Part shown: positions 7,199-25,738 of the stretch, one piece after another
How the letters are laid out: each line of letters starts with the position of its first letter
Numbering within the stretch: the stretch's first letter is position 1
Sequence record: DRR723986_4745
DNA length: 34,016 nucleotides
Direction: 5' to 3' (one strand)
Translations under genes and position numbers: made by a program
The notes under the pieces: model-generated
The model's input: the letters and a program-made list of their open reading frames with translations, nothing else
Databases searched by the model: none
Told to the model about the DNA's origin: nothing

Positions 7199-9154
7199 TT
7201 ATTGCTGTGAAAGCTGTTGCCTGTAGGATTGCAATGTCGGGTCAGAAGGATTGGCAACCAGAGCCTTTTGCAGACTGAGCTGCGCTCCCGCCATGTCACC
7301 GACCGCCATCTTGATGCGCACCTGCATCACCCAGGCATTGATCATTTGCGGATCCAGCAGGGTGACTTCCTCAAAGGCTGCTATGGCTGCAGGGATATTG
7401 CGAAGAACGAGCGCGGTTCCACCAAGTACCAGCTGGGTCTCCGGAAAATCCGCCTTGTTCGCGAGTGATTGCTGCCATTCGGTTGTGGCTCTGGAGGCAG
7501 CCTCGGCCATTTGGTTCGGCATATGGGCAATGGGGGCGCCGATCATGAGACGGGCCGCGGCAATCCGGACGGCTTTGACCGGATCACTCAAGGAAGGAAT
7601 GATCCGTGGAAGCCGCTGGGTTGGCGGAACTGGCTGCTGTAATGCCAGCGCTCCGGCGCGGACGATTGGCTCCGGATCTGCCAAGAGGTCGGTGACGGCC
7701 TCGGCGATCTCCGGTGTCGCAACAGGCAACAGCAGGTCCAGCGCGCTCGCCCGCACGACCCCGGGGTAACTCGCTTGATGGGCGACCGCCAGAAGGTCCG
7801 CGGCGTTCACGCCCGGGTTCTGCCGTGCCGCCGAAAAGATCTCTGCAAAATGTGGCCCACGGTGACGACTGTCCGGAAACCGCTTTTCAAGTTCTCCGGT
7901 GGCCCAGGCGGCGGACTTGTCGGTGTGGCAGTCGTTGCAGGCATTCGGCGTGCCGAGCTTTTCCGAAAGATCCGGCCGTGGAACGCGGAAGGAATGATCT
8001 CTTCGCCCGTCGATACCCATATAGACGCGCTCGATCATGTGGCAGGATTTGCACTCGGCGCCCGGCGTCTCCGGTTGATGGAAATGATGGGAAGGGTCGT
8101 CATAGAGCTTGCCCGTCAGCGACGGAAACGCCTCGTTGCCTGCGGGACTGTGGCATTGTGTGCAAACGGCGTTGCCTTCCGCGCGCAATTCTCCGCTGTG
8201 TGGCTCGTGGCAATTGCTGCAGCTCACGCCCTTGGCATACATCTTTGACTGCAGAAATGAGCCGTAGACATAGACCTCGTCAAGGATCTGCCCATCGGCG
8301 TGATAAAGGCCTTCGCGTAGTGGCGATAGCCGGTACGCATCATGGAACGGTGTGCCAGGCAACGGATTGCCGTCCTCAAAGGCTTCGCGGCGCGAATGAC
8401 AACCTGCGCATTGCTGGATTTCCGCTTCCGGCTGGCCTTTTGCAAACACCGGCAGAACACCGGTTGGTCCGGTTCCGGGGAAGGGGCTTTTGCCGTAAGT
8501 TTCCGGGTCTTTCGCCCAGGCAAGATGGGCTGCGCCCGGTCCGTGACAGGCTTCGCATCCGACGCCGATTTCCGCCTGCCGGCTGGAATAGGTCCTGGTG
8601 CCGGGGTCGTAATTCTTTTCAAAGCCGGTGGCGTGGCACTCGGCGCAGCGGGCATTCCAGTTCTTGTAAGGTCCGGTCCAGTGCAGCCCGTCTTCAGGCG
8701 GTGGAGCATCGTCTCCGTAAAGGTGGTACCAGCGCTTGTTCTGCTGATCCCAGACCACGTCGAAAGACTGAACCCGTCCCGGTTCCGTTTCGACAAGATA
8801 CTGTTGCAGCGGAGCAATTCCGTCGACGCCGATCACCTTGAATGTTTGCGTCTTACCCGGAACGTCGCTCGTCTCGATGAAATAGTCGCCGTCGCGTGCG
8901 AAGAAGCGGCTGGTGCGCCCCTTGTGCGTGAACTGCGAATTGTCGAAGTCCGCGTCGACCGTATCCGGTCCGGGCTCCATCCATGCCTTGGAATGGTGCG
9001 AAGCGCGCCAGGCGCCGGCTTCCGCCTCATGGCAACCGGTACATGTTGCTGTGCCGGCATAGTCCGGAACAGCGGCAGAAAGGTTTTCGGCTGCATTGGC
9101 ACTCTGGAACCAGAGCACGGCAAGGAGCGCGACGAGCAAACGGGTGAACAACAT
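7199..9154 (-). CDS. Exported octaheme cytochrome c with C-terminal HEAT/TPR repeats
   Basis: Signal peptide and eight CxxCH motifs (CTGCH, CAECH, CEACH, CAGCH, CSNCH, CTQCH, CKSCH, CNDCH). HEAT-like 'LADPEPIVRA' and 'LSDPVKAVRIAAA', then a TPR-like tail. Confidence 0.9.
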   Translation of the reverse strand: MLFTRLLVALLAVLWFQSANAAENLSAAVPDYAGTATCTGCHEAEAGAWRASHHSKAWMEPGPDTVDADFDNSQFTHKGRTSRFFARDGDYFIETSDVPGKTQTFKVIGVDGIAPLQQYLVETEPGRVQSFDVVWDQQNKRWYHLYGDDAPPPEDGLHWTGPYKNWNARCAECHATGFEKNYDPGTRTYSSRQAEIGVGCEACHGPGAAHLAWAKDPETYGKSPFPGTGPTGVLPVFAKGQPEAEIQQCAGCHSRREAFEDGNPLPGTPFHDAYRLSPLREGLYHADGQILDEVYVYGSFLQSKMYAKGVSCSNCHEPHSGELRAEGNAVCTQCHSPAGNEAFPSLTGKLYDDPSHHFHQPETPGAECKSCHMIERVYMGIDGRRDHSFRVPRPDLSEKLGTPNACNDCHTDKSAAWATGELEKRFPDSRHRGPHFAEIFSAARQNPGVNAADLLAVAHQASYPGVVRASALDLLLPVATPEIAEAVTDLLADPEPIVRAGALALQQPVPPTQRLPRIIPSLSDPVKAVRIAAARLMIGAPIAHMPNQMAEAASRATTEWQQSLANKADFPETQLVLGGTALVLRNIPAAIAAFEEVTLLDPQMINAWVMQVRIKMAVGDMAGAQLSLQKALVANPSDPTLQSYRQQLSQQ

Positions 9155-21091: not shown

Positions 21092-21198
21092 AGCCCATGC
21101 GCTGAAGAGCATCTCTTCGGTTCGATATTCAACGGGAAGGCCAAGGATCATCTGCCGTTCCATCATGGCCGATGGCACGGCAGACTATTGCCTTTCCG

Positions 21199-21630
21199 TC
21201 AGTCAGCCCTTTGCATGCGCAGATAGGGTTCACCGTCGGACGTTCGCTTGACGGCGACACCGTCACCGTTGATCAAAACGACCACCCGGCTGCGAAAAGC
21301 AGAAAAACTGTCGAAGGTGACCACATCCACGGGCGTGTCGAACTTGATGGTCACCCGGTATTGGCCAGCCGGACCAACCCGTGTCAGCGACAGCACCTCT
21401 CCTTCGAAAGGCTGCTTCATGTAGGTGCCCGAGACGCGGTTGCCGACGGCAAACTGCATCTGGTTTGGTCTGGCGGCTGTCGCGGATACGGTGTTCCAGT
21501 CCTTGAAGCCGTATTGGGCAGACAGGAGTTCGAGCGCCTGGCTGTGGGAGATATCCTGCCCCTTGGCAGCTAGCGCGGCGCGCAGGCGCTTGGCCTGTGC
21601 TTTGAGATTGGCAACGCTGGGCAGCGTCAT
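21199..21630 (-). CDS. Glyoxalase-superfamily (Glyoxalase_8-like) protein
   Basis: N-terminal 'KAQAKRLRAAL...ISHSQALELLSAQYGFKDWNT' and C-terminal 'VSGTY..QPF.G...FDTPVDVVTFDSFSAFRSRV'. Confidence 0.8.
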   Translation of the reverse strand: MTLPSVANLKAQAKRLRAALAAKGQDISHSQALELLSAQYGFKDWNTVSATAARPNQMQFAVGNRVSGTYMKQPFEGEVLSLTRVGPAGQYRVTIKFDTPVDVVTFDSFSAFRSRVVVLINGDGVAVKRTSDGEPYLRMQRAD

Positions 21631-21813
21631 GGGATTACCTTTCCAAGAAAGGCAGGCGGTAAGGTGTTCGCCAATTGGCGGCGACCCGTCATGGGGCCCG
21701 CGTTGCCATCAGCCTGCACTGTCTCGTGAAGGTCGATCAAAGCTGCAAGATGTCTTGCGCAAGGGAATTCACCATGGCCGAAGCCTGCGGGCGGCCGGTT
21801 CCCTCAAACCGGC
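21631..21813 (-). ncRNA. Candidate structured 5' leader / cis-regulatory RNA
   Basis: ~180 nt between promoter and ATG with several hairpins, including a cUUCGg tetraloop and an SD-sequestering stem. Confidence 0.45.
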
Positions 21814-21817
21814 GCAA

Positions 21818-21846
21818 GGCATACGCCCCGGCTCCAGATCTGTCAA
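21818..21846 (-). promoter_or_regulatory. sigma70-type promoter
   Basis: Minus strand TTGACA-N17-TATGCC. Confidence 0.6.
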
Positions 21847-21852
21847 CGCGGC

Positions 21853-21877
21853 AAAAAGAAAGCCGCTGGCGCGGCTT
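21853..21877 (-). terminator. Rho-independent terminator downstream of the dnaA-like gene
   Basis: Minus strand AAGCCGC-gcca-GCGGCTT followed by TCTTTTT. Confidence 0.75.
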
Positions 21878-22048
21878 CAAGGAGAGGGAGGTTAAGATGA
21901 AACACCCGGCGGCTCTTACCGCCTGAGTTCGACCGCGCCCCGTCGGGCGCAGAAGGGTGATTGCCCTGAATTGGGGGCAGGGCAATCGCGGAGACGGGCA
22001 AGCCCGCCGCCGCAGGTTTTCCGAGGGAGGGGTGTCCCCGGAAACAGA
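21853..22048 (-). ncRNA. Candidate 3'UTR-derived multi-hairpin sRNA
   Basis: Five to six consecutive hairpins and two CCUCCCUC anti-SD-like motifs, ending in the terminator. Confidence 0.35.
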
Positions 22049-23512
22049 TCAGGCGTGGACCAGCCGCTTCAGGAGTTCGACTTCCTGTGCAAGGGCCTTG
22101 TCCTTGGACACCATGTCCTCGATCTTGCGGACCGCATGCAGCACGGTGGTGTGATCACGGTTGCCGAACCGCCGGCCGATTTCCGGCAGTGAGCGTCCGG
22201 TCATCACCTTGGCGATATACATCGCTATCTGGCGCGGACGGACCAATGTGCGGGCCCGGCACGACGACAGGAGATCCGCCTTGGTAACGCTGAAATGCTT
22301 GCACACCACCTGCTGGATCTCTTCCACCTTGATGGAGCGCGGCTCGCCGATCCGCACCAGGTCGTGCAGGGTCTTTTCCGCCAGGTCCATCGTCACCGGC
22401 TGTTTCGTCAGCTGGTTGTGAGCGAACAGGCGATTGAGAGCGCCTTCCAGATCGCGGGCCGAAGCGATCACGTAGCGGGCAATGTAGTCGGCTACATCTT
22501 CGGGAACGGAGAAGCCCGGATGTGTGCGACGCGCCGCGGTGATCCGCTTCTTCAGGATATCGTGGCGCAGCGCATAATCGGTTGACTGGATGCCGACAAC
22601 TTCACCTTTCTGGATCCGGTAGCGCAATGCATCGCCAAGCGTATCGAGGTCTTCAGGCGAGCGGTCGGCTGCCATGATGATCTGGGTCGGCGACTCCATG
22701 AGCAGTTCCAGCGTCTTGCTGAACTCGTCTGCGGCCTGCTTGCCATGCAGGAACTGGAGATCGTCAACCAGGAGCAGGTCGATGGAGCGCATTGCCTGGC
22801 GCAGCACCGGGAAGGCCGGCGTTCTGAGAGCAGGCACCAGGTGGTACATGAAGAATTCAGCCGACAGATAGGCAACCTGCCGTCCCGTCTTGCGAGCTTC
22901 GGCCGCCGCTGCCTGCAGCAGGTGGGTCTTGCCGATGCCGGTGGACGAATGGATATAGAGCAGGTCCAGGGTGCCCTGGTGGCCGGCAGCCATCTGGCGC
23001 ACGGCGGCACAGGCAAGGCTGTTCGAAGCGCCTTCGGCAAAGGTGTCGAAGGTCAGCTTAGGATTGAGAGACGCACCGTTCAGGAAATCCGCCGCCGCAT
23101 CCTCGTTGCTGTCCGCAAGGCACGGAATGACCGACATGCCATGGGACGCGCCGAATTGAGGCGTGCTGCAGAAGGGGCCGGGACGGCCGCTGATCCGCCG
23201 GGCGGAGATCGCCTTGGGGGCAAGGCCGACATTGAGTTGACGAGGACGCAGAGCACCGCGAACGGTCAGCTCGATACGGTTGATATCGTCCTGCTCACGT
23301 TTCCAGAGCCCGACGAGCTGCTTCTCGTAGTTGTTCTGGATCCAGTTTTTCAGGAAGCGGGTGGGCACCGACAGGCGGACTGCATCGCCCGTGGTTTCTT
23401 CGTGGTTTACTCTGCCGAACCAGTTGGAAAATACATCGTCACCGAGCTCGTTTCTCAGTTCCTTTTTCACACGATCCCATTGATCCGAACCAGCTAAGTT
23501 CTGAACCTGCAT
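22049..23512 (-). CDS. dnaA: DnaA-family replication initiator, divergent (probable paralog)
   Basis: Domain I (W..VK..L...F.NWF...PTRFLKNWI), Walker A STGIGKT, Walker B LLLVDDLQF, sensor II RDLEGAL, domain IV RPRQIAMY...SLPEIGRRFGNRDHTTVLHAVRKI. SD GGAGG before ATG 23512. Confidence 0.9.
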   Translation of the reverse strand: MQVQNLAGSDQWDRVKKELRNELGDDVFSNWFGRVNHEETTGDAVRLSVPTRFLKNWIQNNYEKQLVGLWKREQDDINRIELTVRGALRPRQLNVGLAPKAISARRISGRPGPFCSTPQFGASHGMSVIPCLADSNEDAAADFLNGASLNPKLTFDTFAEGASNSLACAAVRQMAAGHQGTLDLLYIHSSTGIGKTHLLQAAAAEARKTGRQVAYLSAEFFMYHLVPALRTPAFPVLRQAMRSIDLLLVDDLQFLHGKQAADEFSKTLELLMESPTQIIMAADRSPEDLDTLGDALRYRIQKGEVVGIQSTDYALRHDILKKRITAARRTHPGFSVPEDVADYIARYVIASARDLEGALNRLFAHNQLTKQPVTMDLAEKTLHDLVRIGEPRSIKVEEIQQVVCKHFSVTKADLLSSCRARTLVRPRQIAMYIAKVMTGRSLPEIGRRFGNRDHTTVLHAVRKIEDMVSKDKALAQEVELLKRLVHA

Positions 23513-24457
23513 TGTGGCCTCCATTGGAGGGACCGTTTGGAACCGCTCCCCCCCGTGCACTGTCTATGAGCAACGACGTTCCGCCTCGCTGCCCGTTTCT
23601 TTCGTTAGGTCTTTTGCCCATTTTGGGTCTCCAGACCGGATGGCTTATTAGCGCCTATGAAACACCATTAACCTTTTGCTTACCATATTTACAAATAGCT
23701 TATTTTTATGAGGTCATAGACGTTTCATATTGTAATTTTTGTAGATGACGGGCGCTGCGCATGTAAATTTTACATAGCGAATCTTGCGTTTCGTCATCGT
23801 CAGGACATGCCGCAAGTCCCGACCCAGTTGTTCTCCTGTCGCTGTTTCCGCTCTGCCTGTGAGCTTGAAGACGATTTTAGGAAAAATTTAACTTTTCAGG
23901 ATTTTTTCTGCGAGTTTTCAAAAGGACGCTGTCAAATTAAGAAGTTTAGCCAAGGAAAAAGCCGGCTTAAATCGAAAGGTCATGTTGTTTATGACAGGGG
24001 TGCGTACGCGCCGGTTCACCCGTCACATGGTCACTGAATCGGCTAACGTTCCACCTAACCGGTCTAGCAGGTCCGTATGGTGGTGGAAGCTGGGGAAAAT
24101 GGGGCGCCTGAAAACAGGCTTTATGACCGGCAAAACCAGAACCCGGGCCTGGTTGCCGTTCCCGTAAACTGCTGACAGATCAGGATCCTGGCTGTATCAA
24201 TGCATACATTGATGGGGCATCGTATTTGGCAGATCGAAGGAACCTTATCCCCAGCACCGAGGAAACTTCGGCAACCTGCCAGTTTTGACAATTGATCCCT
24301 TGACGCTGTTGAGGGCGGAGCATGCCTTCCCGGCACTAGGTGCTTTTACATAGCTGAGACCTGGCGCTTTCCAAGTAGAGATCAGTAAATCACGAAGTTC
24401 GGTTACGCCGACGTGGCGAAACCGGCTTGGGGTGCGCCGGCTCCGCAGCTTGTCAGC
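23513..24457. promoter_or_regulatory. Long AT-rich non-coding region upstream of the dnaA-like gene
   Basis: Visibly AT-rich at ~23640-23990. Palindromes ATGTAAA-T-TTTACAT (23761-23775) and ATCAATG-cata-CATTGAT (24196-24213). CtrA-like TTAG-N7-TTAAC (23877-23892). Two opposed TTWTCCCCAGC (24089-24099 on -, 24245-24255 on +). Confidence 0.55.
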
Positions 24458-25738
24458 TCAAGTTGTCGTCTTGAAAACATTCGCAACAGTCGAGAACAGA
24501 TTGTTTCTGTTCGTGTGCACATCTATCGGAAACTTTGGGCCGGTGTTCGCCCAGATGGGCGCGTCGTTGGGCAGGCCGGGACCCCGTTGCACCGAAACGA
24601 GGCCAAAGCCGTCGTTGTCCCAGTATCCGTTCGGGAAACCGGGCGCAGGCGGACCGCCCCACCAGGTGTAAATGTTGGGGGCTTCAGGCTGGTTCCACAG
24701 TTCATCGCAATATTCGAAGTAGTAAAGCCCGATACAAAGCGGATGAGCAAAGGCCTGAGGCAGCATTTTCTGCGCAACTTGCGCCGCCTTGCTGCAGGTC
24801 TGATCGTCGGCATAAATGGTTCCTGGGTTGTTCGGGTCCCGGTGACTGGTTGCCGGCATGCCCCACTCGGTGAAGAGAACGGGTTTCAACGCCTTTGGCG
24901 GCAGGTTGCCGTAGTCCTTGAAGATGCTTTCAAAGGTCTCGGTCTGGTAGGTGTTGACGCCCCAGAAGTTGATGCTCGGGCAGTTCTCCATGTAGGAGGA
25001 CGCCTTCAGGGGAATGTTCGGGTCGTCGTGGGTTGCCATGCCGGCCAGCTTGCCAGGAGCTTCTTCCTTGACGATGGCAGCCATTTTCTCCACCTGACCC
25101 CACCAGAAAGCGGCCCAGTCCGGATTGTTGTAGCAAACGTCGGCGCCGTCCTGTTCGTTCTGAATGGTGAACCCCATCACCGCCGGATGATCTGCTACGG
25201 ATCTGACGGTCTCCCGCAGGACATTCGTCCAGTAGTCGATCTCTACCTGAGAGGCCTGGTCGTATTGGGTCTTCCAGAACATCGTGGCAGGCAGGGGGAC
25301 GCCGACCAGGACGGACCGGCGCATCTTTGCTTCTGGCGGAGCAGACTTGTCCCAGGCCAGGTCCAGAAAATTCTTATGCGTGAAATAGTGGCCGTTGTCC
25401 CAGGGGGTAGGGAAGGTTCCGTTGCCTTCCAGCTGCCGCGACAGCATGCAGTAGACCCGCAGCGCATTGTTGTGGAGGTTCCTGAAATTGGGGAAGTCGC
25501 GGGACAGCAGGGGTGACCAGCTGGAAATGAAAGTGGAGCCTGCTTCGAAGTCGTCCCAATACCAGTCACCCAGGGCGGGGGCATAGGAGTTGGAACCGTT
25601 GATCGGGGCCGGGGAATAGCAGACCCCTTTCAATTTGACCTTCACGGTCGTGGGCTGTTGCCCGTCTTCGGTGAGTTCGCAGTAAAGATTTGCGGTTCCA
25701 TTGCTGTCGACGGAACATGTCCATTTGGTTGTCGTCAT
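24458..25738 (-). CDS. Clan GH-A (GH2/GH5/GH158-like) TIM-barrel glycoside hydrolase
   Basis: KGVCYSP, NALRVY, DHPAVMGFTIQNE (acid/base NE), GVNTY, KPVLFTEWG (nucleophile E), YFEYCDE. No signal peptide. Confidence 0.8.
   Translation of the reverse strand: MTTTKWTCSVDSNGTANLYCELTEDGQQPTTVKVKLKGVCYSPAPINGSNSYAPALGDWYWDDFEAGSTFISSWSPLLSRDFPNFRNLHNNALRVYCMLSRQLEGNGTFPTPWDNGHYFTHKNFLDLAWDKSAPPEAKMRRSVLVGVPLPATMFWKTQYDQASQVEIDYWTNVLRETVRSVADHPAVMGFTIQNEQDGADVCYNNPDWAAFWWGQVEKMAAIVKEEAPGKLAGMATHDDPNIPLKASSYMENCPSINFWGVNTYQTETFESIFKDYGNLPPKALKPVLFTEWGMPATSHRDPNNPGTIYADDQTCSKAAQVAQKMLPQAFAHPLCIGLYYFEYCDELWNQPEAPNIYTWWGGPPAPGFPNGYWDNDGFGLVSVQRGPGLPNDAPIWANTGPKFPIDVHTNRNNLFSTVANVFKTTT

Follow-up and report, generated by a model that had tools for sequence, protein, structure and literature searches.

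What role can be played by a complete DnaA that lies away from the genes among which the replication initiator is normally encoded? Almost all bacteria have one dnaA. The question is raised by sequence record DRR723986_4745, a stretch of 34,016 nucleotides (the window, here always meaning the whole stretch), in which a first-pass annotation had recognized a full-length dnaA gene at positions 22049 to 23512 of the minus strand and had taken it for a probable second copy. The analysis reported here leads to the answer that this gene, which we call DnaA2, is a genuine, vertically inherited, selectively maintained and genus-specific DnaA paralog, found in Roseibium (formerly Labrenzia; Stappiaceae).

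Membership in the DnaA family follows from both domain content and score. The three Pfam families DnaA_N, Bac_DnaA and Bac_DnaA_C all exceed their cut-offs, and with 415.1 bits the protein clears the 343.9-bit cut-off of TIGR00362, the NCBIfam equivalog model for DnaA, in agreement with the four-domain, full-length architecture first proposed. Exact look-ups of the protein with three alternative N-termini found no identical entry in the sequence collection searched. The reading frame stays open upstream to a GTG at 23560; the start is placed at the ATG at 23512, which aligns with the MQVQ start of canonical proteins and of relatives. The genome behind the window is represented by the nearest genome searched, G001 (51% shared 31-mers), whose 6.15-Mb chromosome has two DnaA genes. 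One is canonical, with the motifs FNPL, QQEFCH, RVRSRL and GGLVV intact and the order rpsT, 1.2 kb of intervening sequence, dnaA, dnaN and recF; it aligns with DnaA2 over its full length at 59% identity. The other matches the window protein at 99.6% identity, so that DnaA2 is not the only dnaA of such a genome and the suspicion of a second paralog is borne out. The window itself gave no match to rpsT, dnaN or recF of G001 by tblastn, in keeping with the absence of these genes remarked on at first pass.

The second copy is specific to Roseibium. In one sample of the genus, 33 of 37 genomes have a paralog-type full-length match to TIGR00362; in another, 65 of 72 species' genomes have two or more full-length matches (E <= 1e-60), the second matches listed scoring 398-438 bits versus 496-512 for the first. 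Across nine other genera of Stappiaceae one match is found in 59 of 60 genomes (the remaining one, G091, has two fragments), and one match is likewise the rule in other families of the order (24/24 genomes). An even sample of the class, with full-length matches accepted at E <= 1e-80, tells the same story: 392 of 401 genomes have exactly one, seven have none at threshold and two genomes, G001 and G498, have two. Two unpublished genomes, G188 and G363, are counted here with one match apiece, and the conclusion is independent of both. The G498 assembly, in which two full-length DnaA matches occur, comprises 240 contigs with 4% contamination.

Within the genus, seven genomes have a single match. 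In G030, which is 61% complete, only the paralog is found, while G020, G026, G106, G135, G028 and G029 have only the canonical gene; DnaA2 is thus absent from six Roseibium species, each at least 92% complete. The canonical dnaA is kept in every Roseibium genome at least 90% complete, G030 being the sole genome in which it has no match. At least 10 Roseibium genomes assembled as a single contig (G007, G009, G013, G033, G037, G118, G124, G133, G136 and G138) have two matches. In one Roseibium genome, G031, there is a third full-length DnaA, of 473 aa (at about 4.91 Mb of G031:C1; L132:8965-10386, also L099), which shares 45% identity with the window protein and forms a long branch apart from Stappiaceae. 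Its residues N166, P167, H252, R281, R285 and L290 are as in canonical DnaA. The gene immediately follows one resembling adenylosuccinate synthetase, with DnaJ-domain and Ro60/TROVE genes close by, and probably belongs to foreign or mobile DNA.

How the second gene arose can be read from trees and from its surroundings. In a tree of both copies (94 rows, with nine distant loci, L075-L083, and the duplicate L006 left out), all 47 paralogs form one clade apart from canonical DnaA, with a Shimodaira-Hasegawa-like approximate likelihood ratio test (SH-aLRT) support of 100 and a stem of 0.91 changes per site. This clade nests within Roseibium and its two nearest genera (support 100), together with the canonical sequences of Roseibium (support 94); because long-branch attraction would draw it outward, the nested placement is conservative. 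In a paired tree of 52 rows the paralog topology matches that of the canonical gene, with a group X (G006, G027, G024 and G025, plus, on the paralog side, G139/G111, whose canonical copies were not among the rows) and a group Y in which G033 is basal. Such mirroring implies a single duplication in the ancestor of the genus. DnaA2 thus derives from one duplication of the chromosomal dnaA in the Roseibium ancestor; it was inserted between the genes for an FAD-linked oxidase and a tetratricopeptide-repeat (TPR) methyltransferase, descended vertically from then on and was later lost twice, by clade-level deletions.

The order of the genes at the locus is the same in 41 of 41 loci of the larger paralog clade (clade A): HisPhos, FabI, FAD oxidase, DnaA2, Glyoxalase_8, a variable segment, TPR-methyltransferase, SRAP, a hypothetical gene and NUDIX. 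Clades A and B adjoin the same FAD-linked oxidase gene. In an outgroup genus (G086) only 74 bp separate the oxidase from the methyltransferase and Glyoxalase_8 is absent from the locus; in the four paralog-less Roseibium genomes examined, of six (G026, G135, G028 and G029), Glyoxalase_8 is still present, the oxidase being followed by 250-300 bp and then by Glyoxalase_8. The flanks of the two copies, compared upstream and downstream with blastn-short, share only chance words of 7-14 nt, so the extent of the original duplication can no longer be traced.

DnaA2 is under purifying selection. Both genes could be compared across 22 genomes; of the 231 pairs, 69 were usable (0.05 < dS < 1.5 in both genes), and the median ratio of nonsynonymous to synonymous divergence (dN/dS) is 0.083 for the paralog versus 0.043 for the canonical gene, with paralog dN about 2.2-fold higher. 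Change is concentrated in one part of the protein. Counting as invariant any column at least 93% conserved among 45 canonical Stappiaceae DnaA gives 311 columns. Most of clade A departs from the canonical residue in 85 of these, and in 49 of the 85 a different residue has become fixed (domain I, 7; AAA+ core or IIIa, 26; lid or IIIb, 4; domain IV, 12). By domain, the changed columns number 12 of 61 in domain I, 1 of 4 in the domain II linker, 49 of 123 (40%) in the AAA+ core, 8 of 50 in the lid and 17 of 82 in domain IV. To call the AAA+ motifs eroded, as was done initially, is right in that they have changed and too weak in that many substitutions are fixed to a new residue under purifying selection. 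It is also possible to see in DnaA2 a functionless duplicate drifting to loss, given its evolution at about twice the canonical rate, its replaced AAA+ motifs and its disappearance from two clades, but the low dN/dS, the 49 fixed columns, a frame intact in every extracted paralog sequence, the retention of catalytic and DNA-reading residues and the conservation of the upstream region contradict this, and we find it scarcely credible. As a separate observation, the domain II linker (paralog residues ~91-145, window ~23078-23242) has a mean pairwise identity of 0.69 among paralogs versus 0.57 among canonical proteins and is only 17% identical between the two copies; the conserved linker could be a new interaction site.

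Which residues have been kept, and which released, bears on what the protein might do. Work in E. coli has assigned functions to many of them (PMC5742627): the DnaA box is recognized by R399 together with the helix from residue 434; domain I self-interaction is mediated by W6, and F46 binds DnaB (PMC5742627, PMC3287180); R281 stabilizes oligomers on the origin and is needed for DnaB loading, not for unwinding; and the box VII and AID mutants R281A, R285A, R227A and L290A keep DNA and ATP binding while destabilizing domain III-III oligomers (PMC5742627). In E. coli numbering (reference DnaA from NC_000913), W6, F46, K178, E204, V211, D235/D236, K243, D269, R334, R399, D433, H434 and T435 are invariant in 51 paralogs (44 of clade A, 6 of clade B and G033). 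T179 is found in 49 of the 51, with serine in one clade-B sequence and in G033, and R432, T436, V437 and A440 are also unchanged in 47 paralogs (44 of clade A and 3 of clade B). The window protein has all of the ATP-site motifs K178/T179, D235/D236, D269 and R334, its own Walker A (GIGKT), Walker B (DD), sensor I (D283) and sensor II (R353) being retained; for Walker A/B and sensor II this had been seen at first pass.

The changes lie elsewhere in the AAA+ region. Against the canonical protein of G001, TFNPL has become TLDLL, VQQEFCH has become AADEFSK, DRVRSR has become DALRYR and GGLVV has become KGEVV, and every string quoted in the first-pass annotation (TLDLL, ADEFSK, ALRYR and GEVV) appears in this alignment. 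Within box VII of the window protein only the first arginine, R281, is lost (A295), the arginine finger, R285, being retained as R299; L290 is replaced by E304. These substitutions are not shared with the canonical orthologs of close relatives, since 45 of 45 canonical Stappiaceae DnaA keep N166, P167, H252, R281, S284, G288 and L290. Among the paralogs, FNPL has become LxxL, and both sub-clades release or replace P167, R227, H252, R281, S284, G288 and R398 (now Cys). The R281 position, arginine in 45/45 canonical proteins, holds G, T, R, K, A or S in clade A and G, R, I or K in clade B. At R227 of AID-1, also arginine in 45/45 canonical proteins, the window protein has R, clade A has K in 32 of 44 (K or R overall) and clade B has A or S. 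At L290 of AID-2 (canonical L in 45/45), 36 of 44 clade-A proteins have Glu, a change confined to clade A. All 6 clade-B proteins and 40 of the 44 in clade A have the arginine finger R285; the other four clade-A loci (L040, L042, L048 and L065) have lost both R283 and R285, the latter to Y or V, in proteins that are otherwise intact.

From this pattern a function can be proposed. With DNA-contact residues identical to those of DnaA, DnaA2 would still read DnaA boxes, and with Walker A/B and sensors I and II retained it would still bind ATP. The face that docks a neighboring protomer in the head-to-tail filament would at the same time be unconstrained, to judge from R281, R227, S284, G288 and, in clade A, the L290-to-Glu change. 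After an early change centered on the AAA+ core, the protein would have left the role of stand-alone initiator, and the combination of a kept DNA-reading surface and ATP site with a released docking face suggests that it would most likely work as a regulator bound to DnaA boxes. We put at an even chance the proposal that DnaA2 is a box-binding, ATP-binding regulator that is no longer a stand-alone initiator. How it might regulate can be envisioned in two ways. It is possible, and we suggest it tentatively, that DnaA2 enters DnaA assemblies at oriC or box clusters through domain I and its ATP face as a non-propagating subunit, limiting filament growth and helicase loading. Action as a transcription factor or as a competitor at DnaA boxes is the more doubtful of the two; a pure transcription factor would not need the conserved V211, K243 and F46.

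If the paralog acted at an origin, which one would it be? Other alphaproteobacteria have their origin near hemE, and so does G001. Along its chromosome, sampled every 300 kb, GC skew has negative values between 5.8 Mb and, past the zero coordinate, 2.2 Mb; it is close to zero at 2.5 Mb and takes positive values over 2.8-5.5 Mb. It switches once at 2.5-2.8 Mb, near hemE, and once at around 5.6-5.8 Mb, and the paralog, at 1.22 Mb, lies in the middle of a replichore. In the 20 kb around hemE the 200 nt of lowest GC content lie directly upstream of hemE and include a DnaA box with one mismatch. In five genomes the distance from hemE is 0.35-0.57 Mb to the canonical dnaA and 1.1-1.7 Mb to the paralog, and the order of the three genes is constant. 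The canonical dnaA-dnaN-recF block of G001 (L131, G001:C1:2063000-2081000) lies 0.57 Mb from the skew-defined origin on the strand of skew -0.030; it appears to be transcribed head-on to replication, with the paralog in the same orientation. The complete chromosome record of G031 begins at the paralog (G031:C1:34-1449, L100), with the canonical dnaA at 1.13 Mb and the hemE-linked origin at 1.67 Mb; as this case illustrates, annotation pipelines and tools that rotate chromosomes to dnaA can choose the wrong gene in Roseibium.

These data bear on the idea, raised in the first-pass annotation and disfavored here, that DnaA2 initiates replication at an origin of its own, adjacent to its gene on the chromosome or carried by a secondary replicon. 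A dedicated second replicator would be expected to look like a DnaA-type protein encoded away from dnaA-dnaN, DnaA-like replicases drive plasmids of Rhodobacterales (PMC9025767), and a long AT-rich intergenic region lies upstream of DnaA2. The single-contig genomes with two copies, however, need no second replicon, the skew of G001 switches only at the two places just named, and cumulative GC skew across the window is nearly monotonic. A search of the scanned open reading frames of the window for ParA/ParB, RepABC and integrase found none of these, and the window consists of ordinary chromosomal genes. A scan for DnaA boxes gave one site with a single mismatch upstream of the gene, at 24245-24253, and two in the window in total versus a shuffled mean of 3.3, which is not above chance. 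We therefore consider a second origin very improbable.

The region upstream of DnaA2 is conserved in its own right. In 39 clade-A sequences (three loci with short flanks were left out) two blocks, one spanning -120 to -235 and the other -360 to -410, show conservation of at least 90%, and the former falls inside a 245-nt contig of RNA run X11 (23597-23841). This leader, 23597-23841 on the minus strand, is more conserved than the synonymous sites of the coding sequence and forms a separate high-depth X11 contig; it may be a structured 5' untranslated region or a small RNA, and a search of the window with Rfam at gathering thresholds matched no family. Of 39 clade-A loci, 36 carry, 361-387 nt upstream, a motif of the form TTAA-N7-(T/C)TAA with variable spacers, which we take to resemble the CtrA consensus. 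RNA-library contigs from three studies (X1, X3 and X11) cover the coding sequence and leader and end at 23778, 23668 and 23841; transcription appears to begin about 350 nt upstream, at a predicted start around 23860-23875 behind the conserved CtrA-box-like site, and this arrangement hints at cell-cycle or CtrA-type control. A sigma-70 promoter scan of 21100-24500 found none. The X11 contig spanning 19685-23565 has a depth of 740 versus 31-50 for its neighbors, a single figure per contig that cannot rank genes, and gaps in RNA cover at ~23850-24180 are likewise not informative.

A promoter and leader of its own, conserved and unlike those of the canonical gene, would also suit a condition- or cell-type-specific initiator, which might act at the hemE-linked oriC, alone or in mixed filaments, when canonical DnaA is limiting. 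The four domains, Walker A/B, sensors I and II, V211, K243, W6 and F46 are all kept for such a role, R285 is kept in 46 of 50 proteins, and the gene is seen in RNA-library contigs. It is nevertheless unlikely in our judgment, as the R281 position is unconstrained, AID-1 and AID-2 carry other residues, two-fifths of the invariant AAA+-core columns are changed and four species lack the arginine finger, while the gene is missing from six Roseibium species in two clades and the canonical copy is retained in all the more complete genomes.

The box-bound regulator can be given a more specific, and correspondingly more speculative, form, in which DnaA2 would serve as a cap. Under CtrA-type control it might occupy DnaA boxes of the hemE-linked origin and take the arginine finger of a neighboring DnaA into its intact ATP site, ending the filament through its own degenerate docking face. 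We offer this as a guess with odds well below even. If true, the timing of replication starts, or the cell type in which they occur, would be governed by the cap, and DnaA2 would be a natural separation-of-function DnaA kept for the history of the genus. A predicted complex of domains III-IV of the canonical protein with domains III-IV of the paralog, modeled with no ligands, scored 0.16 versus a mark of 0.34, which speaks neither for nor against the proposal.

Several points weigh against the regulator reading. The function is drawn wholly from residues mapped onto work in E. coli. The paralog conserves V211 in the single-stranded DNA-binding H motif, K243, the helicase contact F46 and, in 46 of 50 proteins, R285, and several of these serve mainly for initiation. 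R281 is still arginine in 8 of 44 clade-A proteins, and the FNPL-to-LxxL change lies near the nucleotide pocket, making ATP binding uncertain. Nearer to DnaA2 than the box at 24245-24253 there are only sites with two mismatches, weak matches among which none stands out as a target. The canonical dnaA of the window's own genome is taken to exist from G001. Both trees are quick searches with SH-aLRT support, and RNA run X5 yields a 72-kb contig across the region that behaves like DNA, so that the RNA contigs may in part reflect DNA carry-over.

Table 1. Features of the DnaA2 gene, its upstream region and its neighbors (window positions)
Feature	Position	Strand	Basis and remarks
DnaA2 coding sequence, 487 aa	22049-23512	-	Open reading frame and translation, Pfam, TIGR00362
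Shine-Dalgarno-like GGAGG, 5 nt 5' of the ATG	23518-23522	-	Sequence reading; block conserved in 39 clade-A upstream regions
Domain I (DnaA_N, residues 10-71); W6 and F46 equivalents retained	23300-23485	-	Pfam; W and F in 44/44 clade-A and 6/6 clade-B paralogs
AAA+ core (Bac_DnaA, residues 149-305), the most remodeled part	22598-23068	-	Pfam; 139.8 bits versus 205.5 for the canonical copy of G001
Walker A SSTGIGKT, residues 189-196, retained	22925-22948	-	K in 51/51 paralogs, T in 49/51
Box VII and AID-2 stretch D294-A-L-R-Y-R299-I-Q-K-G-E304	22601-22633	-	Alignment, E. coli numbering
Domain IV (Bac_DnaA_C, residues 396-464); R399 and recognition helix from H434 same as canonical	22121-22327	-	Pfam, alignment
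AT-rich block in the long leader, strongly conserved, -120 to -235 from the ATG	23632-23747	-	Most columns at least 90% identical, 39 sequences
CtrA-box-like TTAAATTTTTCCTAA (TTAA-N7-CTAA) in the conserved promoter-proximal block	23877-23891	-	Motif match
Terminator-like hairpin and T run, 170 nt past the stop	21849-21878	-	Number of such sites in the scanned region not above chance; position suggestive only
Glyoxalase_8 gene, constant downstream neighbor (context only)	21199-21630	-	Pfam E 2.9e-57; follows the paralog in 41/41 clade-A loci
426-aa open reading frame between FAD oxidase and paralog	24458-25738	-	Only in the window, G001 and 3/41 related loci (aggregatum group)

The immediate neighbors had been described at first pass as a glyoxalase-like gene and a glycoside hydrolase. 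The former is confirmed as Glyoxalase_8; the latter label is not, since the only Pfam signal in the 426-aa reading frame is a sub-threshold match to GH72 (17.2 bits versus a cut-off of 25.9, E 0.0034), and this frame looks like a recent insertion to which Pfam assigns no function. Farther away, at 7199-9154 on the minus strand, the window encodes a 651-aa multi-haem cytochrome c with several CXXCH-type domains and an MtrC/MtrF-like match.

Comparison with known members of the family helps to place DnaA2. With canonical DnaA, as represented by TIGR00362 and the proteins of E. coli and Caulobacter, it has in common the four domains, Walker A/B, sensors I and II, V211, the box-reading helix and R399, along with a score above the equivalog cut-off; it differs in lying outside rpsT-dnaA-dnaN-recF, in the loss of R281, the Glu at L290 and the replacement of FNPL and QxEFxH, and in being dispensable in two clades. 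Its natural changes fall on the same residues as the box VII and AID mutants of E. coli (PMC5742627), but those are laboratory point mutants of a sole initiator, whereas the changes in DnaA2 are fixed in a second gene, alongside dozens more and with wild-type DnaA present. Hda/HdaA offers a functional analogy, as a DnaA-derived AAA+ regulator of initiation. Hda lacks domains I and IV. DnaA2 was rejected as a member of this family, being full length with both of these domains and reaching 95.3 bits on TIGR03420, whose cut-off is 194.8.

Chlamydiae, too, can encode multiple members of the DnaA family in a genome (DnaA1 and DnaA3 in Waddlia), and there the paralogs are treated as bifunctional initiators and transcription factors (PMC4989314); that phylum is unrelated and its duplication independent, the Roseibium paralog nesting in the Roseibium DnaA clade. 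The DnaA-like plasmid replicases of Rhodobacterales (PMC9025767) are, like DnaA2, DnaA-related proteins of marine alphaproteobacteria, and are used outside the chromosomal origin; they belong to plasmid replication modules, whereas DnaA2 is chromosomal, mid-replichore, with no partition genes nearby, and occurs in single-replicon genomes as well. A full-text search of the literature, which did not cover supplementary files, found no description of the Roseibium paralog, and the available portion of a paper on Labrenzia/Roseibium genomes (PMC6699656) does not mention it.

A genus of common marine, host-associated bacteria has thus kept a second DnaA since its origin. The parts that bind DNA and ATP are frozen, while residues linked by work in E. 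coli to filament stability, helicase loading and assembly specific to ATP-DnaA have been released or replaced, a natural experiment on the separable activities of DnaA. DnaA2 is a candidate for an undescribed layer of control over replication or the DnaA regulon in alphaproteobacteria, and since Roseibium has cultured strains, its part in the biology of these bacteria is directly testable.

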